Shown here piece by piece: positions 13,102 through 56,819 of a stretch of 64,000 nt of DNA; the first letter of the stretch is position 1; every line of letters starts with the position of its first letter. This DNA is from Pseudomonadota bacterium (GTDB lineage Bacteria; Pseudomonadota; Gammaproteobacteria; JBCCGL01). A model generated the notes under the pieces. That model searched no databases, was not told where the DNA came from, and saw only the letters and a program-made list of their open reading frames with translations. A program made the position numbers and the translations under genes. The stretch lies in contig JBCCGL010000005.1 of the NCBI GenBank assembly GCA_039029275.1, positions 209,122-273,121 of the forward strand, read 5' to 3'.

Positions 13102-13180
13102 TTCCGGGGTGTACCGCACGGCGGCGAGTGAAACCGTCGCCGATTTTTTAACGATTCGGTCTTAAGCGAGTTACCAGACA

Positions 13181-14449: not shown

Positions 14450-14453
14450 AGGC

Positions 14454-14705: not shown

Positions 14706-14728
14706 CCGCCCTGCACTTCACCCGCGAT

Positions 14729-15001: not shown

Positions 15002-15002
15002 C

Positions 15003-15413: not shown

Positions 15414-15450
15414 GACTGCCGAAACCGCGTACTTGAGGTAAGCTTGAGGT

Positions 15451-22815: not shown

Positions 22816-22828
22816 TTCGTGCGCCCGA

Positions 22829-24511
22829 TTATTCGACGATCAGCGGTCGCCCAAAGCCGAGCTCTTCGCGCAGGCAAGCGATAATTTCACCGTGCGTGCA
22901 ATCCTCTGCGGCCGCATCGATCACCGCGGCGAACACATTATCGTTTTTACTGTTGGCCGCCCTGCGCAAATTATCGATACCGTTGGCGACTCGCGGCCGA
23001 CTGCGCGCGGCTTTGAATTGCTTGAACGATTCAACGTGCGCCACCATGCGATCGGCGTCTGGCCGGTACGGCGGCACCGAGTGCGAGTCGTCGTCTTCGC
23101 GATAGCAGTTTACACCCACGATTTTTTCTTCGCCGGACTCAACCTTGTCCTGCCACTGCATCGCGGACTCGCCGATCATTGCCTGAACCACGCCGCTTTC
23201 AACCGCCTTGTACATGCCACCCGCCGTGTCGATCTGGTCGATAATGCTGCGAATTTTTGCATCCATCGCGTCGGTCAGCTGTTCTACGTAATAAGAACCC
23301 GCTAGCGGATCGATGACATCGCACAGGTGCGCCTCTTCGCGCAGGATGTTTTGCGTGGCGACTGCAATTTTTGCTGTGTCCTCGGTCGGGCAACTGATGG
23401 CTTCGTCGTAGGCGTCGGTGTGCATCGACTGCAGACCACTCAAAATGCCCGCGATAGCTTGCGCGGTGACTCGCGAGATATTGTTGAGCGGCTGTTGCGC
23501 GGTCAAATCGGCGCCGGATGTTTGCCCGTGAAACTTGAAACGCCAGGATTTGGGATTCTTTGCGCCCAGTCTTTCCCGCGCAATCTCGGCCCAGATGCGT
23601 CTACCCGCGCGAAATTTCGCGACCTCTTCGAACAAGCTGATTGAGATGTCAAAAAAGAACGTGAATCGGGGCAAAATAACGTCGGGATCCATACCGCGTC
23701 CAATGCAGTCCTCGGCGTATTGAAGCGCACTCGATAAGGTAAACGCCATGGTTTCCGCAGGTGTGGCGCCGGCCTGTTGCATGTGCTGTCCAACAATCGA
23801 CATTGGGTTCCAGTTGGGCACGTGTTGGCGACAAAACTCGATGTGGTCAAGCAACAAGCGGCGCGAGCCCGGCAGCGAAAGCCGGTAAAACATGTGGTTG
23901 GCAACAAAGTGTGAGATGTAGTCGCTTTGATTCGACGTGCCGCTGATTTTGTCCCACCCCACGCCGCGTCGACGCGCAACATTCAGGACGAAGGCAAGCA
24001 GCGTAAATGGCGATGGGTCATTCATCGCGGTAGAGATTCGGTCAATCGGCACGCCGTCGAGAGCGCTGTCCATGTGCTCGACCGTGTTAACCACCGTGCC
24101 GCACGTGCCCAGCAACGGCAGCGGTACTTCGTCGCAGTCATTGCCGCGAAAGCCGGAGTTGCACGGCAGCAGGCTGATCGCATTGGCGCCGCGATCGAGA
24201 ATTGTGCGTACCCGCTCATTGTAATCGTGTGGAGTGCCGAGTCCGATCAACTGACGCTGCGACCAGGTTCTGCCGCGGTGCATGGTGGGATAGATGCCGC
24301 GCGTGTAGGGATACTGTCCAGGAAATCCGAGCTGCTCAAGAAACTCGTTTTCATCACACTCACCTGCCGGCGTGTACAGCGGATCGATTTCGATGCCGGA
24401 TCGGTTGCGAACGGTTTTGTCGTTGGCACCGATCTGCTGGCGATATTCCTCACTCCACTCGCCCGACGCGCGGGCAAGTGGCGATTCTTTGCGTTGATCA
24501 AATTTATGCAT
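22829..24511 (-). CDS. B12-dependent acyl-CoA mutase large (substrate-binding TIM-barrel) subunit, split type, specificity unassigned
   Basis: 560 aa with the MCM-family barrel (…[22 protein letters not shown]…). It lacks a C-terminal B12 domain, which is encoded separately upstream. Confidence 0.85.
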
Positions 24512-41407: not shown

Positions 41408-42496
41408 ATGACAAAACCGCGCGCTCGCGAGCTAGGCCTGGACTTTCCTGGTGTCACAGGAAAGCACAATGCAATTACCGACGTCGAAGGCGTAACGGTC
41501 GGTTGCTGCACACTTCGCAATGACGAGAAAGGCATTCGCACGGGCGTGACAGCCATCGTGCCTCGGCAGGATAAAAACAATCCGACGCCGGTACTGGCCG
41601 GTCAGTTCACCCTGAACGGTAACGGCGAAATGACCGGCACACATTGGATCAACGACGCCGGTTATTATCTAGGACCGATCTGTATCACCAACACACACGC
41701 GGTGGGCGTGGTACATCACGCCTGCGTGCAGTGGATGATTCAGCGTTATTCTGAGGCATTTTCCAACGATCACATCTGGGCGATGCCGGTTGTAGCCGAA
41801 ACCTACGATGGCGAATTGAATGACATCAACGGCATGCACGTAACTGCCGAGCACGCGCTCAATGCGCTTGAATCTGCAAGCGGCGGCAAGATAGCGGAAG
41901 GTAATATCGGCGGTGGCACCGGTATGATCTGCTACGGCTTTAAAGGCGGCACCGGAACCGCATCGCGCAGGATTGAAACAGGAAACGAACGCTACACGCT
42001 TGGAGCGCTGGTGCAGGCAAACCACGGCACTCGCGGTTGGCTCAGCGTGCTTGGTGTTCCGGTTGGCCAACATCTATTGGATGAGAATGTCGCGAAGAAC
42101 GAGCGCGGTTCGATTATCGCGATATTGGCGACGGACGCACCGCTCTCACCGCTTGCACTGCGCCACCTTGCGCGACGCGCAGCTTTGGGAGTCGGGCGCG
42201 GCGGAACACCAGGCGGAAACAGCTCCGGTGACATTTTCCTTGCGTTTTCTACGGCGAACGCACACGCAATGTACAAGGCGTCCACACAACCTCAATCATT
42301 TACATTTGTGAGCGAATCCGAACTGGACAACTACTACCTGGCAGCCGTCGAGTCGGTTGAGGAATCGGTCATTAACGCCTTGCTTGCGGCAGAAGACATG
42401 CCGACATTTAAACCCGCCGGTGCGGTTTGCCGCGCGATTGATCACGCGGAGCTGCAAAACGTGATGCGCCGATACGGTCGAATGACGACCGGCTAA
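41408..42496 (+). CDS. S58 (DmpA/OAT) family L-aminopeptidase/D-Ala esterase-amidase
   Basis: …ITDVEGVTVGCCTL…GIRTGVTAIVP… and …GGGTGMICYGFKGGTGTASR… form the DmpA self-processing Gly-Ser/Thr region. Confidence 0.8.
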   Translation: MTKPRARELGLDFPGVTGKHNAITDVEGVTVGCCTLRNDEKGIRTGVTAIVPRQDKNNPTPVLAGQFTLNGNGEMTGTHWINDAGYYLGPICITNTHAVGVVHHACVQWMIQRYSEAFSNDHIWAMPVVAETYDGELNDINGMHVTAEHALNALESASGGKIAEGNIGGGTGMICYGFKGGTGTASRRIETGNERYTLGALVQANHGTRGWLSVLGVPVGQHLLDENVAKNERGSIIAILATDAPLSPLALRHLARRAALGVGRGGTPGGNSSGDIFLAFSTANAHAMYKASTQPQSFTFVSESELDNYYLAAVESVEESVINALLAAEDMPTFKPAGAVCRAIDHAELQNVMRRYGRMTTG

Positions 42497-43104
42497 TCTG
42501 CAAATCGCGCGACGCCAATACCCAGATCCTTTCTGAAAACAGCGAACAGCAATGACGCTGTAGTCAAAATCAATCCGAGTTGAAACGCCGCGTTTTCGAT
42601 GGTCCAAACAGGTATCGCCGGAACAATAATCACCGCACTCAAAAAGCTGGTGATGAAGGTCAGGCGGGTTTCGCTTTCAGGGTAATTCCACGCTTTGATA
42701 AACGTGGGAATTGTTGCGAAGGTGTTTGCCGCAGTCGCGAGCAAGATCGCAACAAGAGGCGAATCCGCGATTCCCCAAAATACCAGTGCCAACAGCGAGA
42801 AAGCGCCACAGGCCAAGTCGAACCTGGTTAACGCCCAATAACTGTTTTTGTTGATAAACGATGCGAGAAAAACCAGCGCCGGAACAACGCCACCAACTAT
42901 CACGCGCACCGATGCCCATACATCGGCATCGGCCGAAAACGCCGCGCCGATACTCACCAAGGGTGCCAGAGCCCACATAAACCACGACACACGATTGGGC
43001 TTGGTTACCCCCCGTAAGGTATCGCGAAAATAGGCGTAGCCGCCCCAGATCATTACCAGTGCGCTGACAATTACGAGCGTTTGGGCAAGTGTTAAACCGG
43101 TCAT
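42493..43104 (-). CDS. hypothetical integral membrane protein (about 6 TM)
   Basis: 203 aa, strongly hydrophobic. No family recognised. Confidence 0.5.
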   Translation of the reverse strand: MTGLTLAQTLVIVSALVMIWGGYAYFRDTLRGVTKPNRVSWFMWALAPLVSIGAAFSADADVWASVRVIVGGVVPALVFLASFINKNSYWALTRFDLACGAFSLLALVFWGIADSPLVAILLATAANTFATIPTFIKAWNYPESETRLTFITSFLSAVIIVPAIPVWTIENAAFQLGLILTTASLLFAVFRKDLGIGVARFAD

Positions 43105-43366
43105 ATTTGTATAGTATTCGATTGTGTTGTTATGTCATTAACGGTGTTCCGGAACGTTTCGGCATGTACCCAGGAATCCCGGATAATGCACGGCGTTCTT
43201 GACCGCTTACGCGCCATCGCCGTCCCGATCAACGCTTGGATCACCGATTTTTCTGCTCAATGATCTGCTCCGCTGGAAACTGCGTAAAATACATCCAGAA
43301 TCCGACGCAACACAACAAGCTTGACCCTAGTGACCAACAAAAATATGTGCACGCTCGCCCCCTACA

Positions 43367-44476
43367 TTGCGTGAGTTATCGATGAAACCTAACTCTCGCC
43401 GAGCGTTGAAGAACAAAATCCGTATTAGCTTGGACCGCACGCTGCTCACGCATCTGCGGTCTTTATGGCTGCCGACTTTCAAAATCGAAGGGAAAACGGC
43501 CGGTGGGGAATCATTGACGCTGTTGTACGCCGGCACGGACGCAGAGCGTATGTATCTGAAATCAATACTGTTTCCCGATGGTGCCAAACAGCAGCGTCTT
43601 GGCAGGCATTTTTTCTGGCAAATCGACCCGCTGGCAACAAAGCTGGGGGCTGACATACAAGTCAGCGTCGCCACATATATCACGCGATTTCTTTTCCCAA
43701 GCGAACAACATTTCTATATTCCAACGTGGCTTGAATGCGAAGCGTCTATTGAAAAGACGTCGGTAACAATTGGTACCACAAAATCACGCCGCCGGCAGAT
43801 TAAACAACTCCTTAAACACAACATGCATTATTCGGTGACAAGAGATCTGGATGACTTAATGCACTTTTATGAGCGAATGTACAAACCGCTGATCTCACAA
43901 TCCCACGGTGGAAACGCTCTAATGATGAAGGCCGACCACATGCTTGAGCGCGTAACTAACGGCGAAGGTGATTTGGTTTTAATTCACCAGGGTGATGACA
44001 CGATAGCGGGTAGCCTGATTGTTTACGACAAAGGTCAGCCACGCTTGTTTTCAGAAGGAATACTCGATGCCGATAAACGTTATATGCGTCAAGGAGTAGG
44101 GTCCGCAATATACTTGTTCAGCTTTCAATATCTCATCGAAAAAGGTTTTAGCCGTGTCAACCTGGGACGTTGCAGGGCGTTTGTTAACGACGGTGTTTTT
44201 TACTTCAAAAAACGTTTTGGCTTGGAAATTATTGGCGAGTTGCAAAAAGGCATGTTACTAAAAAATGTCTCGAATTCGCCTGCGAGCATCAAAATCCTAA
44301 GCTCTAATCCTTTTGTGTATTTGAAAGGCGGAAAGCGCTTTATTGCTCACTTTCTGCGAAAAAATATTGACAGTAATTCAGATGCCACACCTGATTCAGA
44401 GAACGATCTCGATTTGAGTGTTCTCGGGGTAGAGGATGTTGTTGCGATTACGCCTGCGAACGACCGCGTTATCTGA
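43367..44476 (+). CDS. FemAB/Acetyltransf_6-like GNAT-fold protein (island paralog 1)
   Basis: About 365 aa with a C-terminal GNAT-like block (…RQGVGSAIYLFSFQYLIEKGFSRVNLGR…FYFKKRFG…). It resembles the BioF2/CelD/FemAB-type long GNATs and lies in an AT-rich region. Confidence 0.55.
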   Translation: MRELSMKPNSRRALKNKIRISLDRTLLTHLRSLWLPTFKIEGKTAGGESLTLLYAGTDAERMYLKSILFPDGAKQQRLGRHFFWQIDPLATKLGADIQVSVATYITRFLFPSEQHFYIPTWLECEASIEKTSVTIGTTKSRRRQIKQLLKHNMHYSVTRDLDDLMHFYERMYKPLISQSHGGNALMMKADHMLERVTNGEGDLVLIHQGDDTIAGSLIVYDKGQPRLFSEGILDADKRYMRQGVGSAIYLFSFQYLIEKGFSRVNLGRCRAFVNDGVFYFKKRFGLEIIGELQKGMLLKNVSNSPASIKILSSNPFVYLKGGKRFIAHFLRKNIDSNSDATPDSENDLDLSVLGVEDVVAITPANDRVI

Positions 44477-45347
44477 CGTGGAACGTCAACGTTGCCCAAA
44501 GTGATTCGTAGAAAATACGCGGCTCTTCCAAACCGAGAGCCGTGAGAATTCCTGTATACCAATACTCCGATTCATCCTTCTTTCGTAAGTCTATAAAACG
44601 CACATACCAGTTGCCCGATTGGCCAAGTGTGAAACGGACTTGGCCGTTTTCATCTGAGCGCACCCTAACCAAATCAGAATATTCGGATTCGGTATTTTCG
44701 TCTATGTGCGCTTCATGAGAGGCAAAAACCAGCGTATCGGCCAAGGGTTTGCCGTCTTTGTAAATTGTTGCAGCAAATTGCTCACCCTCAGTGAGTGCAA
44801 ATGTATTCACATCCGGGATAATTTCAACGGGATAGCCCAATGGGTTTGCAAAATTTTCACTGAGTTTGTCGCCGGCCTGAATAGCGGACTTGGCGAATTT
44901 GGAAAATCGTTCGACAACGGCGGTGTCTGATTCGCCAGCAATTTTTCGTTCTGCGATCTGATCCGACAATCCCTCAGATTTGAGATAACGGTTAAACTTT
45001 TCCGCCGCCAGCCGTATCGTGTGCGGGCGAGTCGCTAAACCGATGAAATACGTACCTTCTGCGCCAAATTCGTACCTGCCCCGCGTTACCTTGTCGCTAA
45101 GCGTCCACTCGTTTTCAAGAAAAGAGTCGGTATCCCCTGAGGGCAGTAACACATCCGCCGACGCTCGCGATCGTCCTTTGATTGAGGACTCGCTCACATG
45201 AAACGATCCGTTTATGAATGGAAGCGATACGTCGGTGTTCGGAGTGACGAAATGTGATTCGGGCTTTGCGAACAGGGTGTGCGCGTGAGCGTGTCCGAGG
45301 CTGCACATCAATACGGCAGCGGTCACCATTTGAGCGGAGGCACGCAT
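44469..45347 (-). CDS. secreted protein, DUF4198-like (periplasmic partner often found with Ni/Co uptake genes)
   Basis: Signal peptide (MVTAAVLMCSLGHAHA) followed by a beta-rich ~270-aa domain. It starts 3 nt after hupE. The family assignment is from memory and uncertain. Confidence 0.45.
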   Translation of the reverse strand: MRASAQMVTAAVLMCSLGHAHAHTLFAKPESHFVTPNTDVSLPFINGSFHVSESSIKGRSRASADVLLPSGDTDSFLENEWTLSDKVTRGRYEFGAEGTYFIGLATRPHTIRLAAEKFNRYLKSEGLSDQIAERKIAGESDTAVVERFSKFAKSAIQAGDKLSENFANPLGYPVEIIPDVNTFALTEGEQFAATIYKDGKPLADTLVFASHEAHIDENTESEYSDLVRVRSDENGQVRFTLGQSGNWYVRFIDLRKKDESEYWYTGILTALGLEEPRIFYESLWATLTFHVR

Positions 45348-45349
45348 CG

Positions 45350-45928
45350 TTAAGCACCGACGAGGACGTGCAAGCCAATGCCTGCGATGCCAGCCCCCAC
45401 ATAACGCAAGACTTGCGGACCATCTTCGAATCTTGATGCCAGCCCGCCAACGCCGACACCGAGCAGGTGAATCACTGCGGTGCCCATCATGAACCCCAGA
45501 GAATACATGTACGGACTCGCGATCTCGGGCATTTCAAGCCCGTGTGCGTAGCCGTGAAAAATTGCGAAAAACGCGACAAATGCGAGGCTTATCATCGGTG
45601 ACAGTTTTAGATTCGCAGCGATTGCAAGACCCAGGACCAACACTGACAATGCGATACCTGATTCGACGAGCGGGAGCCCGATATCTGCGAGGCCGGCGAT
45701 GCCTCCCAGCACCATCACCCCAACAAATGTTGCCGGGACATACCAGATAGCTTTACCACCGATCTGGTAACTGATGATGCCAACGCTGATCATTGCAAGG
45801 AAGTGGTCAAAACCCAATATTGGGTGCAACAAGCCGACAACGAAGCCTACTCCCTCAACGGAGTGATCTTCGTGCGCCATCACTATCGACGGAATCGCCA
45901 ACAGTACCAAATAAGCAAACTTCCTCAC
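45350..45928 (-). CDS. hupE: HupE/UreJ-family nickel/cobalt permease
   Basis: The N-terminal signature AHEDHSVEGVGFVVGLLHPILGFDHFLAM (the HPxxGxDH motif) plus six TM helices is typical of HupE/UreJ. Confidence 0.8.
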   Translation of the reverse strand: MRKFAYLVLLAIPSIVMAHEDHSVEGVGFVVGLLHPILGFDHFLAMISVGIISYQIGGKAIWYVPATFVGVMVLGGIAGLADIGLPLVESGIALSVLVLGLAIAANLKLSPMISLAFVAFFAIFHGYAHGLEMPEIASPYMYSLGFMMGTAVIHLLGVGVGGLASRFEDGPQVLRYVGAGIAGIGLHVLVGA

Positions 45929-46002
45929 CTCTTACTCCAATTTTGTTTGTTTGAAAATGCGAAATACTAATAGATCGTATACCGGTTGTTCTGCGGATCA
46001 GA

Positions 46003-47148
46003 TCATATTCGTTGATCGTTACCCGTGCTTTTTCGGGATTCAAGAAGCGTCTTGAATTTGAAAATCCAAAACAATATCAAACCTTTGACTGTGTTACCTG
46101 GAGTACGCAATGACACGTATCGCTGCACTCTGGGATTCCACACGCGATGCGCGGGGCTATCCGATATCAGACTTATAACCTTGACGTCTGAATGATCGGC
46201 AAAGTGCTCGAGTAGAAAACGCTTGACCAAAAGTCCCGGAGAGCATTTTGAAAATTCCTGGTCGTACGCAGTTTTTAGACCGACACAAAACTGACCAAAA
46301 ATCAGGCAAACCTGCATACCAATGAGCTTTTGATCTATGTACAGAGCAAATAGTTCGACATTTCCACTTTCTGCCAATTTTGAAATGACACGTTGATAAA
46401 ACTGCTTTTTTCGCGGACTAAGTGAAATCGCTAGTGGTTTCTTGTGCTTTCCGCGACCCTTTCCGTGCCCACCTTTCCATCCTCTTTCTTCTAACTCCAG
46501 GAAATTCGCAAAGCCGTCCAAAACATGGCCGATCTCAACCAAGCGGCAGTATTCCACAATACCCAGCGCATTTGCCTGCTTGATGCGCCTCGTAATGTTT
46601 TGCCGATGCTTGCGTGTGAAGTTGCCGCTCAGAGTTTCGTATGCATCCAAATCAATGAAGTTGCACGAATCACGGCTCCTTTTAAACACGATGGGTTCGC
46701 CGCTATTCGAAAACATCTCGATAAGAACCGAACTGTCCAACACCTCCTTGGCAAGAAAAACATCCCACTTCGTGTTTCTATAGCGTTTGAGTTCTCGAAT
46801 AAAGAATAAAAAAACTGCAGCCTTGTCCGCCTCCTTATTAATCAGAAAATCAGGCATGTACAGTTGTTCTCTTGACGGAATGCTAGCCTGAGTCCACGTG
46901 ATTAACGAACCTTTCTTTTCAAACTCAATTGGGAACACGGCTACGAGCTTAGCGGACTGAAAAACCGCAAAGAAATGGATTCTGTCTTGAGTCTTTTCTA
47001 CCTCTTTAATAAACGCCTCGAACCATGCGGGGTGGCAGTAGAACGAGCGAATATCAGCAACCTCGGTAAGACTCAACCACTCGTCGCGGAGACGGTCAAT
47101 TCCTGACTGGCCGACGAAAACCTCAATCTCGAAATCAGCGTGGCTCAA
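46003..47148 (-). CDS. FemAB/Acetyltransf_6-like GNAT-fold protein (island paralog 2)
   Basis: 381 aa. …GNFTRKHRQNITRRIKQANALGIVEY… and the C-terminal …VELFALYIDQKLIGMQVCLIFG… block match the CelD/FemAB-type GNAT family. Confidence 0.65.
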   Translation of the reverse strand: MSHADFEIEVFVGQSGIDRLRDEWLSLTEVADIRSFYCHPAWFEAFIKEVEKTQDRIHFFAVFQSAKLVAVFPIEFEKKGSLITWTQASIPSREQLYMPDFLINKEADKAAVFLFFIRELKRYRNTKWDVFLAKEVLDSSVLIEMFSNSGEPIVFKRSRDSCNFIDLDAYETLSGNFTRKHRQNITRRIKQANALGIVEYCRLVEIGHVLDGFANFLELEERGWKGGHGKGRGKHKKPLAISLSPRKKQFYQRVISKLAESGNVELFALYIDQKLIGMQVCLIFGQFCVGLKTAYDQEFSKCSPGLLVKRFLLEHFADHSDVKVISLISDSPAHRVWNPRVQRYVSLRTPGNTVKGLILFWIFKFKTLLESRKSTGNDQRI

Positions 47149-48260
47149 TGGGAACGTCTAATGGTTTTTTTAAGATAGTAGGCAGCACGAACTATGGACC
47201 CGATCAGCGTACGGTTAATCGCTTGCAGTTCGATTACCTCTCGGCTTGTCGGCTTCCAAACTTTCTGCCAGGAATAACTTGAAATCATATCGTAGCGTGT
47301 GACATCAGGGTGTTGACTATAGCGATCGATCACGTATTTCCTGAGCAATTGACCGGGACTGGCATCGGTGTACCGCTCGTTAAAGCCGTGCTTTAACCAA
47401 TAAACAGACGCGCCTGAAATTACGCAAAAATCTGCTGCTACTGGCTCTTTATTGATGAGCAAAAGGTGGATATCGCAGCGGTTCGATCGCGCAAATCGTT
47501 TCATCAAGTTCCGGTAAAATTCCAACTGGTCGGGATGCAGGGCAATTGCCCGTTTACCGCCTCTTTGACTCTTCCACCCCGACGCTTCAAGCGCTACGAA
47601 CTGATCGAAAGCATGATCAAGTACGCTCTGATCACACACGGTTACGAACTCCACCTCGCCGAGTGCTTTTAATCGCGCCAGTCCTCGCTTTAGATTACTA
47701 CGCATTTTCTTGGCTAAGACGTCCCTTCCGTAATCGTCAAAGTCGAGCTGAATGAAATTATTGATTGCTATCGCTCTGATCGCAAAGGGGGATGCAACCT
47801 CTTTTCCGACAAGTTGGGATAGTTCGTCCTGGATAAAACCACCCAGCTTTACCAAGTCCCAGGCAACATAGACGTGCAATTGACGCAGGAGTCTGTGGAG
47901 ATCATCCAGTGACCAATCGGGCGGCCACAACATGCCCCTAACCGGAATTGGAGTATCAGGTAGTTGGAGTATTTTGACGGACAAAAAGAGCCGCTTTTTT
48001 AACACTTTTGAGAGCGGCAGCACGGCCCGAAGCTCGACGCCCCGGTACACAGCAACGATGAATTCGAATTGGGCATTCTTACGCAGAGATTCGAAGTATG
48101 AGAGATAATACCCCGATGTCTGCATTAACCCGGTTTGCCCAAAGGATTCGGCGAGGGAATCCCACGCCTGCGCAAGCTTACGAATTTCACTGATTTCATG
48201 GACGATCTCGACGCGCACATCTTCGCCTGCCAGATTTGTTTGGATACTGATTGACTCCAC
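47145..48260 (-). CDS. FemAB/Acetyltransf_6-like GNAT-fold protein (island paralog 3)
   Basis: 371 aa with a parallel motif (…KKMRSNLKRGLARLKALGEVEF… …HLLLINKEPVAADFCVISG…). It overlaps the downstream paralog by 4 nt. Confidence 0.65.
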   Translation of the reverse strand: MESISIQTNLAGEDVRVEIVHEISEIRKLAQAWDSLAESFGQTGLMQTSGYYLSYFESLRKNAQFEFIVAVYRGVELRAVLPLSKVLKKRLFLSVKILQLPDTPIPVRGMLWPPDWSLDDLHRLLRQLHVYVAWDLVKLGGFIQDELSQLVGKEVASPFAIRAIAINNFIQLDFDDYGRDVLAKKMRSNLKRGLARLKALGEVEFVTVCDQSVLDHAFDQFVALEASGWKSQRGGKRAIALHPDQLEFYRNLMKRFARSNRCDIHLLLINKEPVAADFCVISGASVYWLKHGFNERYTDASPGQLLRKYVIDRYSQHPDVTRYDMISSYSWQKVWKPTSREVIELQAINRTLIGSIVRAAYYLKKTIRRSH

Positions 48261-48622
48261 TATCTTTTACATTTTTTCCGCGAATCTGACTTTTTGATTG
48301 GATTGACCATTGACCTACGGAGGAGTGTCAACGACTTACAAAACCACATCAAGGGGTTTTTAAAAAATGTCCAATCAATCGGCACAAACGGAAAACTCAG
48401 GTGTTCTCCAAATTGTGGAAGTCATTTGCTCACAGTAATTTTGTTTTAATTTTCTGGTTTTCTGGTTATCACGCCAATTCGTACCTACACGGTCAGATAT
48501 CGGATCACAGTCGAAGTTCAAAACACCGAGTTCAACACTGTCTTTTGTCCGCACCGATTCAATTTTGCGATCTGGACCTGCGCAGCACACCCGAAGATTT
48601 TGGAAGAGGCTTAATCCTCGTT

Positions 48623-49531
48623 TTACTCGTGCTTATCGGTAGCGGTTATTCCCGCCGCAGCCGCGACCACACAGGCAACCGCGATCATACCCTGTATCCC
48701 CATTCGCTCACCCAGTATCACCGCACCAATCAATGCTGCAACCGCAGGTTCAACGCTGACCAAAACGCCGTACATACGCTTGGTGATCTTCTTCAGCGCT
48801 TCGAATTCGAGCGTAAATGGAATACTCGTTGAGAGTAACGCGACACCTATGCCAACAAAAATGATCAGCGGGTCATTTACCATCGCGGGCAGCGCAGGAA
48901 TCGCAAACGGAATCATTGCACAAGCGGCAACAGTCATTCCGATGGCCAACCCATCGTGACCGGGGATGCGACTCGAAACACGCGTTGACAGGATGATAAA
49001 CAGCGCCCAGCCCGTGCCCGCGAGAACCGCGAACAATATGCCGATTGGGTCAAGGTCGATACCCGAAAGTGGCGACAAAAGGGCAATGCCGGCTGCGGCC
49101 AGAGCAACCCAACCAAAATGGCTGACACGCCGCGAGTTAAACGCGGCCACGCCAAGCGGTCCGATAAACTCAATGGCTACAGCAGCTCCGAGTGGAATGC
49201 GTGCAATCGACTGATAAAAAAACATGTTCATCGCCGCAAGACACAAGCCAAACATCAACAGCAACATCCGGTTTTGGGCAAATATTCGCGTGGTTTGACG
49301 AATACCCGTGCGCGAGACAATCAACAACAGGATCGCAGCGAAAATGATTCGTACGGCGACTGCCCCATCTGCCCCGATAACAGGGAACAAATTTGTCGCG
49401 AAAGCTGCGCCGAGCTGGATCGCGACAATTGCCAACAACACCAGCCCGGGAGGTGGAATGGCGCCCAGCATGTTTGCAGCGACGGACTCATTATCCGGCA
49501 TGGATCGCGCAGCTCTTCTATCGTCGCTCAT
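48623..49531 (-). CDS. DMT-superfamily (EamA-like) transporter
   Basis: Ten TM helices in two EamA repeats. The true start may be downstream of the ORF's first Met. Confidence 0.75.
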   Translation of the reverse strand: MSDDRRAARSMPDNESVAANMLGAIPPPGLVLLAIVAIQLGAAFATNLFPVIGADGAVAVRIIFAAILLLIVSRTGIRQTTRIFAQNRMLLLMFGLCLAAMNMFFYQSIARIPLGAAVAIEFIGPLGVAAFNSRRVSHFGWVALAAAGIALLSPLSGIDLDPIGILFAVLAGTGWALFIILSTRVSSRIPGHDGLAIGMTVAACAMIPFAIPALPAMVNDPLIIFVGIGVALLSTSIPFTLEFEALKKITKRMYGVLVSVEPAVAALIGAVILGERMGIQGMIAVACVVAAAAGITATDKHE

Positions 49532-49653
49532 TATTACAAGTATTGGTTAACGTAAGTTGTATGCTTGGAACAGTCCGCAGACGAAATTACTTTCGCACTG
49601 AATAAAACTGCTTTATTTGTCCACTGATCTCATATCGAATAATTATTTTACAT

Positions 49654-51357
49654 TCAGTTTACCGACAGTGCCCTTGAATCGGCCTCGAGCAATTCATAAA
49701 TCTTGCAGACAATTAACGCGCGTAACGCAATCGCCATATAATCAACGCGCGGCACATCTGGCACTTTAATCAGCGTTTTACGCGCCTTGTTCAGCAGCCT
49801 ATCGCACTGCCGCATGAAAGCGGACTTCTTTCTAACCGTAGATTTCTCAGCGTGCTTAACAATGAATTCAATCGCTTCGCTGGAAAAAACGCCCGTTTGC
49901 TGGCTACGTAAATATTCGAAAATATAAGCGACAACGTCTTCGCGTCCAAGAAATTCAGCCCTGCTGCTGGTCGAACCTTTACTCGCTAGCTTTATGTCCC
50001 CAGAGTTTTCCTCAACAATTTCTTTAAACAGAGATTTATCGTTACGGTAGGTATAGGGCTGGCTGCGAATGCTCTCCGCAATTTCCCGACTAAGCAGCGG
50101 GTTGATTAACTCGCAAAAATAAGATTTGATCAAATTTAGCCCCGCCAAACTGGCAGGCATGAGATAAGTAAAATAAAGTCGATCGATATAATCACCCATT
50201 TCCTCATTTTCTTTGATCATATCAGCTGGGTTGTAATCTTGAGCAGGCAATTTTAACTTTTGAATGAGTTCTTGCGTGTTCGAGTAGTCCTGTAGCCTGA
50301 AGAACCGCCAGTCTTTGTAGAGTTCCTCCGTTGTTTCGCGCCACGTATTCCCAAAAGCTTCGTCACCTCGAATGATGCCTTCAATGCCATCGTTGTAGAT
50401 ATTGCGCCACATTCGAAATCCATCGGTGTAACCCGATATGTTATCGACGAGGCCTTCTCCGTGCGCCACAAACGAATCAAAAACTCGACCAATCGTATCG
50501 ACGTTTTTAGGGTCTAACTCATAATAAGTGTGGGCAGTTTTGTATTTTTGACTCAACTCTGCTGCAACCGCAGCATCAGATCTTTTATCATCCCCTGATC
50601 GTGCTTTCCCCCAGGTTATAGAGCGCAGGTTCGGTTGCTCTCCGATTGCTTGAATAATGCCGCGGCTATCGTAGCCCCCTGAAAGCGCGATTGGCCACTT
50701 TGCAAAGTCGATACGCATACTGGAAACAGAATTTTTAATCGCGGATGCCAGCCGGGATTTGTGAGATTCTTTACTCGCTTGTTTCGGGCTGTAGCACAGT
50801 TCGGTCGTTTGCAATGCGCACGTCCAGGAATCCCTGTCCAGCGTCAAAATCGTATCGGGTGGCACACGGTGTAATCGATCGTCCCAGCTTATTTTTGCTC
50901 CCAGTACTCCGTTCGAGAGCATCCAGCCGGGTGCCTGCACGTTTGGAGAAAAGTTGCCCAGCAACGCAAGCAAAGCGCGCTGGGATGTGGCCGCGAGAAA
51001 TTTGTCTTCGTCGTGAAAATACCAGATCGGGCGCGAGCTATAGACGTCTGTAGCGACCTGAATATGAGTGCTGTCTCCGCGGAATAAAGCGTAACTGCCA
51101 TCTGGCGTATACCCGCCAACCTTATGCCACTCCTCTGAGTCATTCAAAAAATTTCCGACCGCAACGTTAATGCCGTTGACAGGGAGTGAATCTGGTTTGT
51201 TAATGACGCCTGCAACAATTCCATCGTTTTGTGCAACATGGGGCTCCAGGTACGCGATGTCAGCCGGTTCAAGCAGGTCGGATATTTTAACGATGTAATC
51301 CGAGACTGCTGCGGCTTCTGATCTGTCTACGAAACATGCACATATTGCGTGGGCCAT
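49654..51357 (-). CDS. asparagine-synthetase-family PP-loop amidotransferase lacking the N-terminal Cys nucleophile
   Basis: 567 aa. The PP-loop SGGYDSR and the surrounding AsnB-like synthetase domain are present. The N-terminus MAHAIC… has no MCG nucleophile. Confidence 0.7.
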   Translation of the reverse strand: MAHAICACFVDRSEAAAVSDYIVKISDLLEPADIAYLEPHVAQNDGIVAGVINKPDSLPVNGINVAVGNFLNDSEEWHKVGGYTPDGSYALFRGDSTHIQVATDVYSSRPIWYFHDEDKFLAATSQRALLALLGNFSPNVQAPGWMLSNGVLGAKISWDDRLHRVPPDTILTLDRDSWTCALQTTELCYSPKQASKESHKSRLASAIKNSVSSMRIDFAKWPIALSGGYDSRGIIQAIGEQPNLRSITWGKARSGDDKRSDAAVAAELSQKYKTAHTYYELDPKNVDTIGRVFDSFVAHGEGLVDNISGYTDGFRMWRNIYNDGIEGIIRGDEAFGNTWRETTEELYKDWRFFRLQDYSNTQELIQKLKLPAQDYNPADMIKENEEMGDYIDRLYFTYLMPASLAGLNLIKSYFCELINPLLSREIAESIRSQPYTYRNDKSLFKEIVEENSGDIKLASKGSTSSRAEFLGREDVVAYIFEYLRSQQTGVFSSEAIEFIVKHAEKSTVRKKSAFMRQCDRLLNKARKTLIKVPDVPRVDYMAIALRALIVCKIYELLEADSRALSVN

Positions 51358-51489
51358 ACTGACTCATATCCCAATTGAAATCTGAATTGCGTTTACACCG
51401 ATAAAGCAATGCAAAGATTGATGTGGTTCTCAAGTTACACATCACTTGGCAGGCGGTTGATTTCGGTGAGCACATCATACGCGAAACCA

Positions 51490-54400
51490 TTAATGAAAAT
51501 CCCTCGACTGGACTTCCAATCCGCTCAACAAATAGCTTATGTCTTCGAGGTGATCGGCAATTAAATGCAATACTCCATCCTCTTTTTGTACTTTACCTCT
51601 CACGCCTAATAAGTCCGACTGCAATAGCGCCTGTCGCTGTTTCTCCACAATCTTTGGCCAGACAATTGTATTGATAAAACCGTCTTCATCTTCCAGCGTG
51701 ACAAACACAACGCCCGCCGCTGTTCCCGGTCGTTGTCGATTAACCACCAGCCCCGCCACCAACGCTGTCTGATCCGTCTCCAGTTTCCACAGGTCAGATG
51801 AGTTCAGCGCACCGTATCCTTGCAAGGTTTCGCGCAGCATTGCCAGCGGATGTCTGCGCAAGGTAAGACCGGTTTGTCTGTAATCCGCCAGCACATCGTC
51901 TACTTCGGCAGGTGTACGCAACATCGGCTTAACCTCATCTGCCTCCGCCTCACGCAAAAGCGGCAACGCTTGCTCAACGCCGCTGACCTGCCAAAATGCG
52001 CTGTGTCGATGCCCGCTCAACTCGCGCAGCGCATCGGCGGCGGCGATGCATTCGATTTCCTGGCTGGACAAGCCGGTTCGATACATCAGTTCGCGCACAG
52101 AGGAAAACGCTCTCTGCGCCCGCACTTCACACAAACGTTCGACCGCGTTTTTGGATAAACCCTTAACCATGCGGAGCCCCAATCGCAGCTCGGCCTGACC
52201 CGCTTTGTTTTTCTCCAGCGTGCAATCCCACTCGCTCGCATTGATCTCGACGGGTCGAACAACCACACCATGCCGTCGCGCATCCTGAACCAGTTGATCC
52301 GGCCGGTAAAAACCCATTGGCCAGCTGTTGATTAAGGCGCAACAAAATGCGGCCGGATAATAGTTCTTCAACCACGAGGAGATGTAAGCGAGGTGCGCAA
52401 AACTGGCGGAGTGCGATTCCGGAAAACCGTAATCACCGAAACCTTTTATCTGCTCGAAGATACGCAGAAAGTATTCATCAGAGTAGCCGTTAGTTTTCAT
52501 TCCCGCGTAGAGTTTTTCACGATGCGGTTCCAGCCCGCCTTTGCGTTTCCACGCCGCCATGTCGCGCCGCAGTTGATCGGCCTCGCCCGCCGTGTAGTCC
52601 GCTGCGATCATCGCGAACTGCATGACCTGCTCCTGAAAAATTGGCACCCCGAGCGTACGCTCCAATACTCTTTTGACTTTCTCGCAGGGGTAAGTAACCG
52701 GCTCGCGCCCGTTTCGCCGCGCCAGATACGGGTGCACCATATGCCCCTGAATCGGCCCCGGCCGCATGATCGCGATCTCGATCACCAGATCGTAGTAATT
52801 CTCAGGGCGCAGGCGCGGCAGCATGCTCATCTGCGCGCGTGACTCGATCTGAAACACGCCGACAGTATCCGCTCGACAAATCATTTCATAAACCGACGGA
52901 TCCTCACGCGGGATATCCGTCAGCGCCATTGGCTCGGTGTCGTCAAAGTCGCCGATTAGTTTGAGCGCCTTGCGGATAGCCGTCAGCATGCCGAGCGCGA
53001 GCACGTCGACCTTCATCAACCCCAGCGCTTCGAGGTCGTCCTTTTCCCACTGGATAACGCGGCGGTCGGCCATCGCCGCGTTTTCAATCGGCACCAGTTC
53101 GGTGAGCTTGCCTTCGCTGATGACAAAACCGCCGACGTGCTGCGAGAGATGCCGCGGAAATCCGATGATGACGCCGACCAGATAAACAAATTGCCGGATG
53201 ACGAAGCTGTCCAGCGCGAGGCCACCGGCTTCAAGCTTGTCCTCGACGCGCTGATCCCACCAGGTGATCGACTTGGCCAGATGGTCGATTTGCTCCTGAC
53301 TCATGCCAAGCGCCTTGCCCACATCGCGAATCGCGCTGCGCGTGCGATAGGTGATCACGGTCGCGGCCAATGCCGTGCGCTCGTGGCCATATTTGTTATA
53401 GATGTACTGGATCACCTCCTCGCGCCGCTCGTGCTCGAAGTCCACATCGATATCCGGCGGCTCGGCGCGTTCACGCGAAACAAAGCGCTCGAACAACAGC
53501 TGCGTGCAGTCCGGGTGCACATTGGTAATACCGAGGCAAAAACAGACGATAGAGTTAGCCGCCGACCCGCGCCCCTGACACAGAATTTCCTGCTCGCGGG
53601 CAAACTTCACGATGTCGTAAACGGTGAGAAAGTAAGACTCGTATTGCAATTCGGCGATCAGTGCCAGCTCGCGCTCGACCACGCTGCGGTTTTTGTCCGA
53701 TATGCCATCCGGCCAGCGCTCCGCGATACCCCGCTCGGTTAGCTCGCGCAACCACGATCGCGGCGTATAGCCCGGCGGTACCACCTCGCGCGGGTAGCGG
53801 TACTCCTCACGCAATACGTCGAGCGAAAAATGACAGCGCTCTGCAATGCGCAGGGTTTCATCAAGCAGCACCTGCGGATAAATCGCCTGCAGTTGTTCGC
53901 GACTGCGCAGATGGCGCTCGCCGTTTTTGTGTTTGCGGTAGCCGAGTCGATCGACGCTGGTGCCGAGGCGAATCGCGGTGACGACATCCTGTAGCACGCG
54001 ACGCTTGCGCACGTGCATATGCACATCGCCGCTGGCGCACAGCGGTACCCCGTGTTGTTCGCCCATGGCCTGGAGTTGTTGTAACGTTTCCCTGTCGTCA
54101 CCTTCAAGCAACAGCTCGACGGCGATCCACAGCGCTTCACCAAAGCATCGTTGCAACCAGCGCAACGGTTCGTCGTCGAACTTGCCCGCGCTTCGTACGG
54201 GCGACCACAAGGCGATACAGCCTTTCGGAAAATACTGCTGCAGCATCTCACGGCTTAGCAAATACCGGCCTTTTTCCGCTGCGCAGCGCGCCATGCTGAT
54301 CAGGTGCGACAAGCGTCCGTAACTCGCGCGACTGGTCGCCAGCAGGACGAACCGCGTACCGTCGTCGAGCGTAAACTCGCTGCCAACGATTAATTTTATT

Positions 54401-54597
54401 TTGTCCCGCGCCGCCAAATGCGCCCGCGCCACGCCGCTGAGCGAGCACTCGTCGGTGATGGCAATCGCGCTGTAGCCCAGTTCAAGCGCGCGCGCGACCA
54501 ACTCCTGCGGGTGCGATGCACCGCGCAAAAAGGTGAAGTTGCTAAGGCAGTGCAGCTCGGCGTAGAAGGCACCTCGGCTGTCGTTTTGTGAGGGCAT
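51490..54597 (-). CDS. dnaE2: error-prone DNA polymerase III alpha-subunit homolog (DnaE2/ImuC)
   Basis: A PHP domain (AELHCLSNFTFLRGAS) and the polymerase core are present. It is about 1035 aa from MPSQND and sits in a lexA-imuA-imuB cassette. Confidence 0.9.
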   Translation of the reverse strand: MPSQNDSRGAFYAELHCLSNFTFLRGASHPQELVARALELGYSAIAITDECSLSGVARAHLAARDKIKLIVGSEFTLDDGTRFVLLATSRASYGRLSHLISMARCAAEKGRYLLSREMLQQYFPKGCIALWSPVRSAGKFDDEPLRWLQRCFGEALWIAVELLLEGDDRETLQQLQAMGEQHGVPLCASGDVHMHVRKRRVLQDVVTAIRLGTSVDRLGYRKHKNGERHLRSREQLQAIYPQVLLDETLRIAERCHFSLDVLREEYRYPREVVPPGYTPRSWLRELTERGIAERWPDGISDKNRSVVERELALIAELQYESYFLTVYDIVKFAREQEILCQGRGSAANSIVCFCLGITNVHPDCTQLLFERFVSRERAEPPDIDVDFEHERREEVIQYIYNKYGHERTALAATVITYRTRSAIRDVGKALGMSQEQIDHLAKSITWWDQRVEDKLEAGGLALDSFVIRQFVYLVGVIIGFPRHLSQHVGGFVISEGKLTELVPIENAAMADRRVIQWEKDDLEALGLMKVDVLALGMLTAIRKALKLIGDFDDTEPMALTDIPREDPSVYEMICRADTVGVFQIESRAQMSMLPRLRPENYYDLVIEIAIMRPGPIQGHMVHPYLARRNGREPVTYPCEKVKRVLERTLGVPIFQEQVMQFAMIAADYTAGEADQLRRDMAAWKRKGGLEPHREKLYAGMKTNGYSDEYFLRIFEQIKGFGDYGFPESHSASFAHLAYISSWLKNYYPAAFCCALINSWPMGFYRPDQLVQDARRHGVVVRPVEINASEWDCTLEKNKAGQAELRLGLRMVKGLSKNAVERLCEVRAQRAFSSVRELMYRTGLSSQEIECIAAADALRELSGHRHSAFWQVSGVEQALPLLREAEADEVKPMLRTPAEVDDVLADYRQTGLTLRRHPLAMLRETLQGYGALNSSDLWKLETDQTALVAGLVVNRQRPGTAAGVVFVTLEDEDGFINTIVWPKIVEKQRQALLQSDLLGVRGKVQKEDGVLHLIADHLEDISYLLSGLEVQSRDFH

Positions 54598-54608
54598 GAC
54601 CAGAAAGT

Positions 54609-56165
54609 TCAGCCGAACAGGCCATGCAGATACCACTGCTGCGGCTGATGCAGATCGCGATATACCCAGCACAGGCGCCCGTACGAATCGCGTGCGATGT
54701 AGTAGTCGCGCCGTACGTCGTGCTGATCCCACCAGCCCTGTTCGACGCGCTCCGGCCCCGATAACAAGGCCACGTCTTTAACGTCGAGTGCTTCGGCCTG
54801 CGGCAGCAACCAGAGGGGCCTGGGTTGATCGATTTTGTTCTGTGCAGGCGCTGCTGCCGTCACCAGCTGACTGGCGCGCTCGGGGCGAAAATCAGCGGGT
54901 GCGGTAACAGCAAAAATCGCGCGATCGCCCAGGCGCGCCTGAAGTTGTTCGAATAATGCCTGCGCGCTGCCTTGCTCTTCGCCATTGCGACCCGCCGGTG
55001 CCAGCAGTTGCGCATTGTGATAGCGGCACGGAAAAAAACGCGTCGCCGATAACTCGACGCTCACCACCGGTGCTGGAAGCTCAAGCTGTTGCAGACGCAC
55101 CTGTAGCAATGCGAAAAGACGATCGACGTCGTGCGTGGCGGTGCGCGTGCCGGTGATGATACTGGTGGCATTGCTGCGCTCGTGAAACAGACGCAGCTTG
55201 ACCCGATTAACGCCGAGATCGCGCGCGCGCAGAAAGTCGCCCAACTCCTCCAGCAAGGCATGCGCGGCCTGGCCGAGCTGATCGAGATCGGACACCTCAT
55301 GCATCAGTTCTTCGCTACGGCAGAAGCGCGGTTTGCGCCGGAAGGTTTCGCGCACATCCGCCGCCTCGCCCAGCAGCTTGTCGAGGTAGAGTAAAAACCC
55401 CGGCCCAAATCGCTTACCGAGTTGATCCTTTGGTAAGCGCCAGATATCGCGCAGCTCGCGCACGCCGCTGTTGTGCAGGCGCTGGCGCTCGCGCGCGTTC
55501 ATTGGCAGGTAGTCAGTCGGAATCCCGCCCAGCGCCGAGCGCAAATCCTGCCGCTCGCACACATTATTCGTGCTGCCCGTGCGTGCGAGTAACAGGCTCG
55601 CCGCCGGGGTCGGGCTCACCGCCATATAAAAAGCGTGCTGACGCTGCGAAAGTTGCTGCGCGACGCCGGTCTGGATCGCCTCCAGACTACCGAAGTAGGC
55701 GATACTTCGCTGCACTTCGAGCAGCAGGGCGTTGCCCGCGCACAGCGTTACCTGCGAAGTGAACTGCTGCATCAGTAGCGCGAGTTGATACAGGCGTTTT
55801 TTCTGCACGACGCGATCGATCGGACGCAGCTGGAGTTGCGGGCAGATCGCATAGGCCGCACTCAGCAACATGCCTTTTTTGACCCCGCCCCTGTGCGCCA
55901 GCTGCGATGCAGTGTGGATGCGCTCGCGCCCCTTGTCGCGCACAAAGGTTGCAACCGGCCGTTGCGCGTGATCCTCAACTACTGCCTCGAGGCTGATTCT
56001 CGGCAGGTATATCGCCAGCCATAACGCGGCGCGCGCTGGAGTGCGCGATTCGATAACAGGCGTCGTAGGGTGTTGCGGCTGCTTGGGTTGTGCAAGCTGT
56101 TCTGGCGACTGATCCGGCTGCGTATCGAACAGAGGCAATGAGGCTGGGGTTTTGAGCTTGACCAC
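54609..56165 (-). CDS. imuB: ImuB (Y-family polymerase-like, catalytically inactive-type) protein
   Basis: UmuC-like fold pattern (…LWLAIYLPRISLEAV…). Position is between imuA and dnaE2. Confidence 0.8.
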   Translation of the reverse strand: MVKLKTPASLPLFDTQPDQSPEQLAQPKQPQHPTTPVIESRTPARAALWLAIYLPRISLEAVVEDHAQRPVATFVRDKGRERIHTASQLAHRGGVKKGMLLSAAYAICPQLQLRPIDRVVQKKRLYQLALLMQQFTSQVTLCAGNALLLEVQRSIAYFGSLEAIQTGVAQQLSQRQHAFYMAVSPTPAASLLLARTGSTNNVCERQDLRSALGGIPTDYLPMNARERQRLHNSGVRELRDIWRLPKDQLGKRFGPGFLLYLDKLLGEAADVRETFRRKPRFCRSEELMHEVSDLDQLGQAAHALLEELGDFLRARDLGVNRVKLRLFHERSNATSIITGTRTATHDVDRLFALLQVRLQQLELPAPVVSVELSATRFFPCRYHNAQLLAPAGRNGEEQGSAQALFEQLQARLGDRAIFAVTAPADFRPERASQLVTAAAPAQNKIDQPRPLWLLPQAEALDVKDVALLSGPERVEQGWWDQHDVRRDYYIARDSYGRLCWVYRDLHQPQQWYLHGLFG

Positions 56166-56174
56166 GGTGTCGCC

Positions 56175-56819
56175 TCAGGCCGCGTGCGGCGGCGTGAACG
56201 GCAGTGGCAGCTGTACATCAATGCTCGGCGTGGCAAAACTGCCGCGCGCCTTGAGTACGTCAACGCGCACGCCTTGCAGCGCGGGCGATAGCTTAAGGCG
56301 TAGCGCCGCCGGGGAGTGTTCGGTTGGCGCATTGCAAAACAAAACCGCGAGTGCGTTGCCCTGCTCGGCAGCTAGCTGTAAGCGCCGCAGTACTTTACGC
56401 GGAAATTGTCTTGCCCACGCCAGCACCAGCCCGCAGGCACCGGATTGCAGCGCTTTTTCGATACACCAGTGGCGCTCGGCCTCGCTGCGGGTTTGCGCAA
56501 CCACGGCGACGTGATCAAGATTGATTTCGCAACCAAGCAACGCCGGTGCGTAAGGCAAATACGGTGGGCACACCCACAGCTGACTGGACTGGCGCTGCGA
56601 CAGCGTGCGCATTAGCGGCGCCAACAGGCGTATCTCACCAACGCCCCAGCGCGGTGCGATCAATTCGATCAAGGCCTTATCCGGCCAGCCGCCGGTGGGC
56701 AAGCGGTTATCGAGCTGCGCGTGACCGCTCGGCCAGTGCTTGAATTGCGCCGCATACGCCGACCGACCACGCCACACGGCGGGGTTGTCGATCAGAAGTT
56801 GTTGCAGCGCATCGCTCAC
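56175..56819 (-). CDS. imuA: ImuA (RecA/SulA-like) SOS-mutagenesis protein
   Basis: 214 aa. …AGEIRLLAPLM… resembles the RecA-fold core of ImuA. It lies between lexA and imuB. Confidence 0.75.
   Translation of the reverse strand: MSDALQQLLIDNPAVWRGRSAYAAQFKHWPSGHAQLDNRLPTGGWPDKALIELIAPRWGVGEIRLLAPLMRTLSQRQSSQLWVCPPYLPYAPALLGCEINLDHVAVVAQTRSEAERHWCIEKALQSGACGLVLAWARQFPRKVLRRLQLAAEQGNALAVLFCNAPTEHSPAALRLKLSPALQGVRVDVLKARGSFATPSIDVQLPLPFTPPHAA

Follow-up and report, generated by a model that had tools for sequence, protein, structure and literature searches.

Why should a predicted metal permease of the HupE/UreJ family be encoded together with transferases that resemble FemAB-type enzymes? This question is raised by a locus in contig JBCCGL010000005.1 of a Pseudomonadota bacterium (assembly GCA_039029275.1), which we studied within a stretch of 64,000 nucleotides (nt), referred to here as the window. 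Two paralogous transferase genes, GNAT1 and GNAT2, are followed on the same strand by hupE and a gene for a DUF4198 protein, and a third, divergent transferase gene, GNAT3, runs toward them from the other strand (Table 1). Judged by gene content, protein families and comparison with related loci, HupE and DUF4198 belong to a conserved module in which they are linked to two or three predicted-cytoplasmic transferases of FemX-like fold. All of the parts come from known families; the conserved combination is new, and no description of a HupE-DUF4198-GNAT linkage was found in the literature searched. We favour the reading that the FemX-like enzymes would build or tailor an amino-acid-derived compound tied to metal, with DUF4198 capturing the metal and HupE importing it, and give it a probability of roughly 0.45.

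Related contigs were fetched and the window proteins were mapped onto them by tblastn. GNAT genes adjoined an orthologous HupE-DUF4198 pair in all 11 loci with enough flanking sequence, arranged in about six gene orders. Hosts of the linked loci include Woeseiaceae, Pseudomonadales and "delta proteobacterium" metagenome-assembled genomes (MAGs) and span several orders, and protein identity between loci is about 30-60%. Seven further contigs (L002, L003, L005, L094, L095, L098 and L100) are cut near the GNAT genes on at least one side and provide no informative negatives. The first-pass annotation of this DNA had called the pairing of such transferases with HupE unusual. Comparative synteny bears it out as a non-chance pairing: absence of the linkage from related genomes would have spoken against it, but all related loci that extend far enough contain it. 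Adjacency kept through some six gene orders, despite this degree of divergence and hosts from several orders, is strong comparative evidence that selection holds these genes together and that the link is functional.

The window order (type A), GNAT1, GNAT2, HupE and DUF4198 facing a convergent GNAT3, is shared by locus L097, and the partial contigs L008 (Woeseiaceae) and L016 agree with it. In L097 a sulfotransferase gene stands in front of GNAT1, and GNAT2 and hupE overlap as ATGA. In L007 (type B; Woeseiaceae), GNAT3 points away from a run of sulfotransferase, GNAT1, a GNAT2 fragment, HupE, DUF4198 and a TonB-dependent receptor. In L009 (type C; Pseudomonadales), a sulfotransferase-GNAT1 pair is divergent from GNAT2, HupE, DUF4198 and an ATP-grasp L-amino-acid-ligase-like gene. 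L010 ("delta proteobacterium", with an integrase gene alongside) and L004 carry HupE, DUF4198, GNAT3, GNAT1, GNAT2 and an open reading frame (ORF) of 502 amino acids (aa), all in one direction (type D). In L006 (type E), GNAT3, GNAT1 and GNAT2 converge on a HupE-DUF4198 pair of opposite orientation. L014 and L096 (type F), the latter with a HupE 70% identical to that of the window, have HupE and DUF4198 facing a convergent GNAT3, with no GNAT1 or GNAT2 in reach. The hupE-DUF4198 pair is thus apart from GNAT1 and GNAT2 in L010, L004 and L006, and with GNAT3 alone in L014 and L096.

GNAT1 orthologs in the related loci are 33-44% identical to the window protein, the best non-self homolog reaching 44%, and GNAT2 orthologs (L002, L005, L006, L008, L009, L010, L094 and L097) are 28-32% identical. 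GNAT3 orthologs were found in the module in L002, L004, L006, L007, L010, L014, L095, L096 and L097. Both families are rare: GNAT1 is represented by about 18 clusters at E<1e-49 among 1.84 billion representative proteins, and GNAT3 by three non-self homologs in a search of 5.8 billion sequences. Decayed 3' remnants of GNAT2 type lie directly 5' of hupE in L004 (450-700), L010 (6100-6330, with an in-frame stop) and L006 (the last 104 nt before the contig end), and each of these loci has an intact GNAT2 elsewhere. In view of these remnants, the GNAT2-hupE junction appears to be ancestral. The hupE-DUF4198 cassette seems to have moved later along with the GNAT2 end, which might carry its promoter.

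We also approached the module from HupE, by a metagenome scan with a HupE alignment from which the best 80 homologs (41-58% identity) were taken. A DUF4198 gene lay downstream in three of the 80 (L014, L016 and L025), and both DUF4198-linked homologs with readable flanks also carried GNAT3 or GNAT2. GNATs were never found beside the homologs without DUF4198 in this set; those sampled, at similar identity, adjoined genes for arginine decarboxylase, LptF/G or NadD/RsfS. With DUF4198-less homologs beside housekeeping genes, the GNAT association is thus specific to a DUF4198-coupled HupE subclade. The earlier expectation that HupE genes normally sit with urease, hydrogenase or B12 genes did not hold for the few homologs sampled, whose neighbours are unrelated housekeeping genes.

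Might the GNATs and hupE-DUF4198 instead be independently expressed cargo of a mobile island, with no functional coupling? No 8.4-kb stretch of the window has a lower GC content than the block at 43105-51489 (GC 0.482 against a mean of 0.536, standard deviation 0.021), which is bounded by a DmpA-type S58 peptidase gene and an imuA-imuB-dnaE2 cassette. Window DnaE2 is identical to that of an uncultured organism's MAG at NCBI and 60-64% identical to DnaE2 of various Gammaproteobacteria; beside dnaE2 of its closest relative (69% identical) other genes are found and the block is missing, which is weak evidence at such a distance. An integrase gene flanks the homologous module in L010. The window itself holds no integrase, and a scan for transfer RNA (tRNA) genes as an integration site found none there. 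The neighbourhood of the DnaE2 relative and the L010 integrase suggest, short of proof, that the module is laterally mobile, and the shuffling of its internal order between loci would also suit uncoupled cargo. Against this, adjacency that survives about six rearrangements at 30-60% identity in several host orders is a signature of selection, GNAT2 and hupE are coupled by the ATGA overlap in L097, and the DUF4198-less HupE homologs among the best 80 never carry GNATs. We consider uncoupled cargo very unlikely.

GNAT1 and GNAT2 both match PF13480 (Acetyltransf_6; E 9e-25, 88 bits and E 4e-18, 66 bits, respectively) and are 23% identical over 365 residues (E 5e-27). The EAxGWK motif of GNAT1 (E225, A226, G228, W229 and K230) is invariant among 59 homologs. 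GNAT3 lacks this motif and matches PF13480 marginally (23.5 bits, cutoff 22). Each of its nine orthologs also falls in the family (best E 1.6e-7), and when the profiles of the GNAT3 and GNAT1 families are aligned, the shared region is this same domain (E 0.0017). An AlphaFold2 model of GNAT1 built from a 59-sequence alignment reached a predicted local distance difference test score (pLDDT) of 93 and a predicted template modelling (TM) score of 0.90. In a Foldseek search of the PDB the top match of this model was Weissella FemX (E 9e-13, TM 0.59-0.66), and further best matches were S. aureus FemA, the streptothricin-type peptide synthases Sba18/Sbb17 and MprF synthase domains. By its model, GNAT1 has a FemX-type tandem-GNAT fold. 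The fold test concerns GNAT1 alone; prediction of GNAT3 from only four sequences gave a pLDDT of 54 and was not used for a fold search.

The likeness to FemX/FemABX, Sba18/Sbb17 and the MprF synthase domain lies in the two-lobed tandem-GNAT fold and, for FemX, FemA and FemB, also in the presence of several sequentially arranged paralogs. By contrast, sequence identity of GNAT1 to FemX-type enzymes is only about 12%, and a GNAT1 profile matched none of the PDB sequences. The window GNATs match PF13480 and not PF02388 (FemAB), and the module has no peptidoglycan or antibiotic gene context, with no cell-wall genes near it in the window or the related loci. The label "FemAB-like" in the first-pass annotation is thus apt for the fold, FemX being the best match of the GNAT1 model, but not for the sequence family, which is of CelD/BcsL type. 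GNAT1-family fusions (P0078, P0093 and P0194) were examined for a Rosetta-stone clue and discarded, containing only repeated PF13480 domains.

The structural matches also bear on the donor of the transferred group. Foldseek placed GNAT1 nearer to aminoacyl-tRNA-dependent enzymes (E 1e-12 to 1e-9, TM 0.5-0.6) than to the acetyl-CoA tandem GNATs VipF and the clavulanate tandem GNAT (TM 0.3-0.47). The GNATs could alternatively be acyl-CoA-dependent acyltransferases which modify or detoxify a compound or protein, an activity required only while the permease is working, for example by N-acylation of a toxic amine, amino-acid analogue or metal complex entering with the metal, with no peptide synthesis involved. 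PF13480 does carry an acetyltransferase annotation, the NCBIfam model closest to the GNATs is the crotonyltransferase BspF (E 3.5e-16, far under its cutoff), and acetyl-CoA tandem GNATs are among the Foldseek matches. Their lower TM scores argue against this alternative, however, and three conserved paralogs exceed the needs of a single detoxifying step. We regard it as unlikely.

The DUF4198 protein matches PF10670 (E 6e-25, 89 bits against a cutoff of 34). Its signal peptide ends in AHA and is followed by HTLF, so that the mature protein starts with His. This mature start (HTLF.KP after the cleaved Ala), including the N-terminal His, is invariant in nine orthologs. The signal peptide requires a start at 45347; the automatic call on the same contig began 50 codons later. 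Functions and structures of DUF4198 proteins were first reported in 2025 (PMC12663993, PMC12537917). Zcp of N. gonorrhoeae forms a homodimer in the periplasm and binds Zn (PMC12663993). IsDUF4198 of Ideonella sakaiensis binds Ni through its N-terminal His, and a His at this position of the mature protein is found in 79% of the family (PMC12537917). Our ortholog profile matches the Zn-binding Zcp structure (PDB 9MHI, E 8e-14), with only the C-terminal half aligned. One of the three Zn-ligand His residues could be mapped: the His of VGHES, replaced by Ala in entry 9MHK, stands opposite Asp or Glu in the DUF4198 clade of this module.

With PF10670, a Sec signal peptide and a mature N-terminal His in common with Zcp and IsDUF4198, the window protein is credibly a metal binder. 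Its setting differs from theirs. Zcp is monocistronic and Zur-regulated, and genes of IsDUF4198 type neighbour TonB-dependent receptors and NikR, whereas the window gene is partnered with HupE and neither a Zur nor a NikR box was found. A closer parallel is offered by "anglerase" domains, which have an N-terminal His and are fused to HupE/UreJ-2 permeases (PMC12537917). The logic would be the same, a periplasmic domain with an N-terminal His capturing a metal ion and feeding it to a HupE-type permease. Here, by contrast, the capture protein is a separate polypeptide of another fold family, encoded 2 nt downstream, and the permease belongs to PF04955 and not to PF13795. By analogy, the hupE-DUF4198 pair looks like a split, non-homologous counterpart of the anglerase-HupE fusion.

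Zcp also bears on another possibility, namely that the GNATs aminoacylate the peptidoglycan stem peptide or a membrane lipid, with DUF4198 as a Zcp-like metal buffer and HupE tuning flux. In that case the genes would be tied together by homeostasis of the envelope during metal stress, and no diffusible product would be involved. Zn uptake does not require Zcp, which associates with machinery for envelope maintenance (PMC12663993), and the best structural matches of GNAT1 include the peptidoglycan enzymes FemX and FemA and the aminoacyl-phosphatidylglycerol synthase domains of MprF. Yet no mur, penicillin-binding protein or lipid-synthesis gene and no flippase domain was found beside the module in any locus, and the Zcp Zn ligand mutated in 9MHK is Asp or Glu in the DUF4198 clade of this module. 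The companions that differ between loci, enzymes as well as transporters, belong to small-molecule metabolism (sulfotransferase, ATP-grasp, asparagine-synthase-like, EamA, TonB-dependent receptor and the 502-aa protein) and not to cell-wall synthesis. Envelope remodelling is thus improbable as the role of this module.

HupE matches PF04955 (HupE_UreJ) at profile positions 2-177 of 179 (E 6e-55, 186 bits against a cutoff of 23), has a signal peptide ending in VMA before HEDH, and is 53-70% identical to HupE of the related loci. Its motifs HPILGFDH (HX5DH) and FHGYAHGLE (FHGxxHGxE) fall in columns that are invariant among seven module orthologs, and in R. leguminosarum HupE both motifs are reportedly essential for function, according to mutagenesis. 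In its full-length family match, signal peptide and both motifs, the window protein resembles the R. leguminosarum and cyanobacterial HupE proteins of PF04955. It differs from known HupE/UreJ systems in that the gene does not lie beside hydrogenase, urease or B12 genes, has no NikR site or B12 riboswitch, and is paired with DUF4198 and FemX-like genes. The family has been described as Ni/Co secondary transporters (PMC2667541). For the window protein, the earlier description as a nickel/cobalt permease is sound as to the family, and "nickel/cobalt" is probably best read as a family-level label: DUF4198 relatives bind Zn (PMC12663993) or Ni (PMC12537917). Genes for a B12-dependent methylmalonyl-CoA mutase and a MeaB GTPase are found at 21916-24511, 21 kb from hupE, and the presence of this mutase indicates that the organism uses a cobalt cofactor.

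How the genes are expressed was judged from their layout. The ORF map agrees with the first-pass annotation that the overlapping, co-oriented GNAT pair (48260-46003) is followed after 74 nt by hupE. The gap of 3 nt it gave between hupE and the DUF4198 gene is in fact a spacer of 2 nt (TAA cg ATG), and its span, which began at 45350, left the DUF4198 gene outside. Its four genes are indeed co-oriented and tightly spaced, but GNAT3 was overlooked and enlarges the unit. GNAT1 and GNAT2 overlap by 4 nt, TTGA, combining the TTG start of the second with the TGA stop of the first. For GNAT1 itself the gene caller favours a GTG start 14 codons in, giving 357 aa. GNAT1-GNAT2-hupE-DUF4198 is most likely a single transcript, given how closely the genes are packed, with one pair overlapping, the lack of a terminator, the order shared with L097, L008 and L016, and the ATGA overlap in L097. 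We infer that the 362-nt stretch 5' of GNAT1, which contains no ORF of at least 60 aa with any family support, is likely to be its promoter region. The operon claim is thus favoured by spacing, the lack of a terminator in the gap and conserved order, but coupling holds at the level of the module, since hupE-DUF4198 is separable from GNAT1 and GNAT2.

Table 1. Features of the hupE-DUF4198-GNAT locus and its neighbours in the window.
Feature	Position	Strand	Description
GNAT3	43367-44476	plus	Third, divergent Acetyltransf_6-like protein, 369 aa
DUF4198 gene	44469-45347	minus	Predicted periplasmic metal-binding protein, 292 aa
hupE	45350-45928	minus	HupE/UreJ-family inner-membrane metal permease, 192 aa
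GNAT2-hupE spacer	45929-46002	minus	74 nt; GGAG ribosome-binding site at end
GNAT2	46003-47148	minus	GNAT1 paralog, Acetyltransf_6 transferase; TTG start
GNAT1	47145-48260	minus	Acetyltransf_6 transferase with modelled FemX fold; ORF 371 aa
Non-coding AT-rich stretch 5' of GNAT1	48261-48622	minus	362 nt, GC 0.414
EamA/RhtA-like exporter gene	48623-49531	minus	PF00892 E 9e-18; NF007823 RhtA 198 bits, under cutoff
Asparagine-synthase-like gene	49654-51357	minus	567 aa, PP-loop LSGGYDS, GC 0.479

Neither riboswitches nor operators were detected. Rfam gave nothing at gathering score in the whole window and, at E<=10 in 44300-49800, only a chance S4-leader match within the EamA gene. Sites in a promoter and terminator consensus scan were no commoner than in shuffled sequence, and none that was sigma-70 promoter-like or terminator-like lay in the 74-nt gap or the 362-nt upstream region. 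The RNA fold of the gap was no stabler than shuffles (z +1.19). Patterns for Fur, Zur and two NikR operators, scanned in the window and eight related loci, gave scattered weak matches, mostly intragenic and none placed as an operator. Words of 11 nt shared with one mismatch among 13 upstream regions went no further than homology among closely related loci. In line with the first-pass annotation, the Rfam and pattern scans thus found no NikR-like or B12-riboswitch element in the 74-nt gap; the metal-dependent regulation it had considered found no backing in these scans or the shared-word search.

On the minus strand at 48290-48335, about 40-70 nt 5' of GNAT1, TTGACA is followed by a tandem direct repeat (GGTCAAT GGTCAAT CCAATCAA). 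The consensus scan did not report this element, and the other loci do not conserve it; from its sequence, it could be a promoter or operator. At the other end of the unit, the 3' end of GNAT3 converges on the DUF4198 gene with an overlap of 8 nt. The stop codons of these two genes overlap or almost touch, in convergent orientation, in four loci (window 44469-44476; L097 1679-1721; L014 9471-9482). With stops this close no terminator fits between the genes, and the two may be subject to convergent transcription or antisense interplay.

In the mechanism we favour, a transcript for GNAT1, GNAT2, hupE and DUF4198 would start in the 362-nt region, with GNAT3 transcribed toward it from the opposite strand. 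DUF4198 would bind a transition-metal ion (Ni, Co or Zn) in the periplasm and pass it to HupE for import. The FemX-like enzymes would load an amine acceptor with aminoacyl groups taken from aminoacyl-tRNA or, possibly, with acyl groups. Their product would be a small amino-acid-derived compound with a metal-dependent role, either a metallophore outside the cell or in the periplasm, or a ligand or buffer within the cell. The metal-chelating product suggested in the first-pass annotation is likewise hypothetical. Lineage-specific accessory enzymes may diversify it: the asparagine-synthase-like enzyme and EamA exporter in the window, and elsewhere the sulfotransferase, ATP-grasp L-amino-acid ligase, 502-aa PP-loop-like protein and TonB-dependent receptor. 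A narrower version, in which FemX-type aminoacyl-tRNA-dependent ligases assemble a short metallophore (a "nickelophore" or "zincophore") that works with DUF4198 and HupE, has in our judgement little chance of being right.

Opine-metallophore cnt loci (staphylopine, pseudopaline) encode CntL/CntM, the EamA-type exporter CntI and a TonB-dependent receptor. The module resembles them in the clustering of biosynthetic enzymes with metal uptake, the window having an EamA-family exporter and L007 a TonB-dependent receptor. By contrast, it is without nicotianamine-synthase-like or opine-dehydrogenase genes, no Zur box was found, and its importer is an ion permease with DUF4198, not an ATP-binding cassette or chelate system. 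No CntL/CntM, IucA/IucC or nonribosomal peptide synthetase (NRPS) domains were among the Pfam and NCBIfam matches of the window genes from 41.4 to 51.4 kb or of the related loci.

Several points weigh against the reading that the transferases make or tailor a metal-linked compound. To our knowledge, HupE-type permeases are transporters of ions and not of chelates, so no metallophore is needed; DUF4198 proteins likewise bind bare ions and do not require one. BspF, a characterised PF13480 relative, is named an acyl-CoA-dependent crotonyltransferase in NCBIfam, which makes acyl-CoA a possible donor. The loci as a whole have no accessory gene for biosynthesis or export in common, and tblastn found orthologs of the EamA and asparagine-synthase-like genes in none of the related loci. 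With no metal-responsive operator or riboswitch found, regulation by metal is without sequence support. An internal promoter may lie in or near the 74-nt gap, considering that hupE-DUF4198 occurs without an upstream GNAT gene in L010, L004, L014 and L096. Finally, the related loci are all MAG or metagenome contigs, several of them truncated.

The neighbours of the module vary. The EamA exporter is best seen as a window-specific neighbour and as only a possible member. The asparagine-synthase-like protein has weak matches in Pfam and NCBIfam to Asn_synthase, the macrolactam-cyclase subfamily and AsnB. The 502-aa ORF 3' of GNAT2 was found in L010 (12318-13826), L002 (4358-5866) and L094 (2533-4041), with 75-100% identity and no Pfam, NCBIfam or PDB match. 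Its ISSGYDS sequence is PP-loop-like and resembles LSGGYDS of the window asparagine-synthase-like ORF; similarity between the two was not significant by BLASTP or hhalign, and the 502-aa ORF was not counted as a shared component. A gene at 42493-43104, divergent from GNAT3, shares 4 nt at its 3' end with the S58 peptidase gene. It encodes a multi-pass membrane protein of 203 aa that matches no family and has an ortholog in none of the related loci. Directly beside the low-GC block on its other side is the imuA-imuB-dnaE2 cassette (51490-56819), which includes an error-prone polymerase; counted from its first start codon, the dnaE2 ORF exceeds the database protein by 45 codons. Farther away, the window encodes a tungsten/molybdopterin-type aldehyde:ferredoxin oxidoreductase beside a pyridine-nucleotide-disulphide oxidoreductase and MoaA (11242-16470), and a Hanks-type Ser/Thr protein kinase ORF of 772 aa (7129-9447).

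HupE/UreJ and DUF4198 proteins are widespread, and their characterisation is only recent. The module described here identifies DUF4198 as a probable dedicated partner of HupE, in what looks like a split version of the anglerase-HupE fusions. In uncultured Proteobacteria of sediment and soil, it also points to FemX-type chemistry tied to the acquisition of transition metals. Were the transferases to make a metal ligand, a tRNA-dependent pathway would be added to the known metallophore routes; a FemX-built metallophore would represent a route independent of both the ribosome and NRPS, and a new mode of substrate delivery for HupE-type permeases. Should no metal ligand be made, the module would still reveal a capability of the large and functionally obscure CelD/BcsL (PF13480) family.

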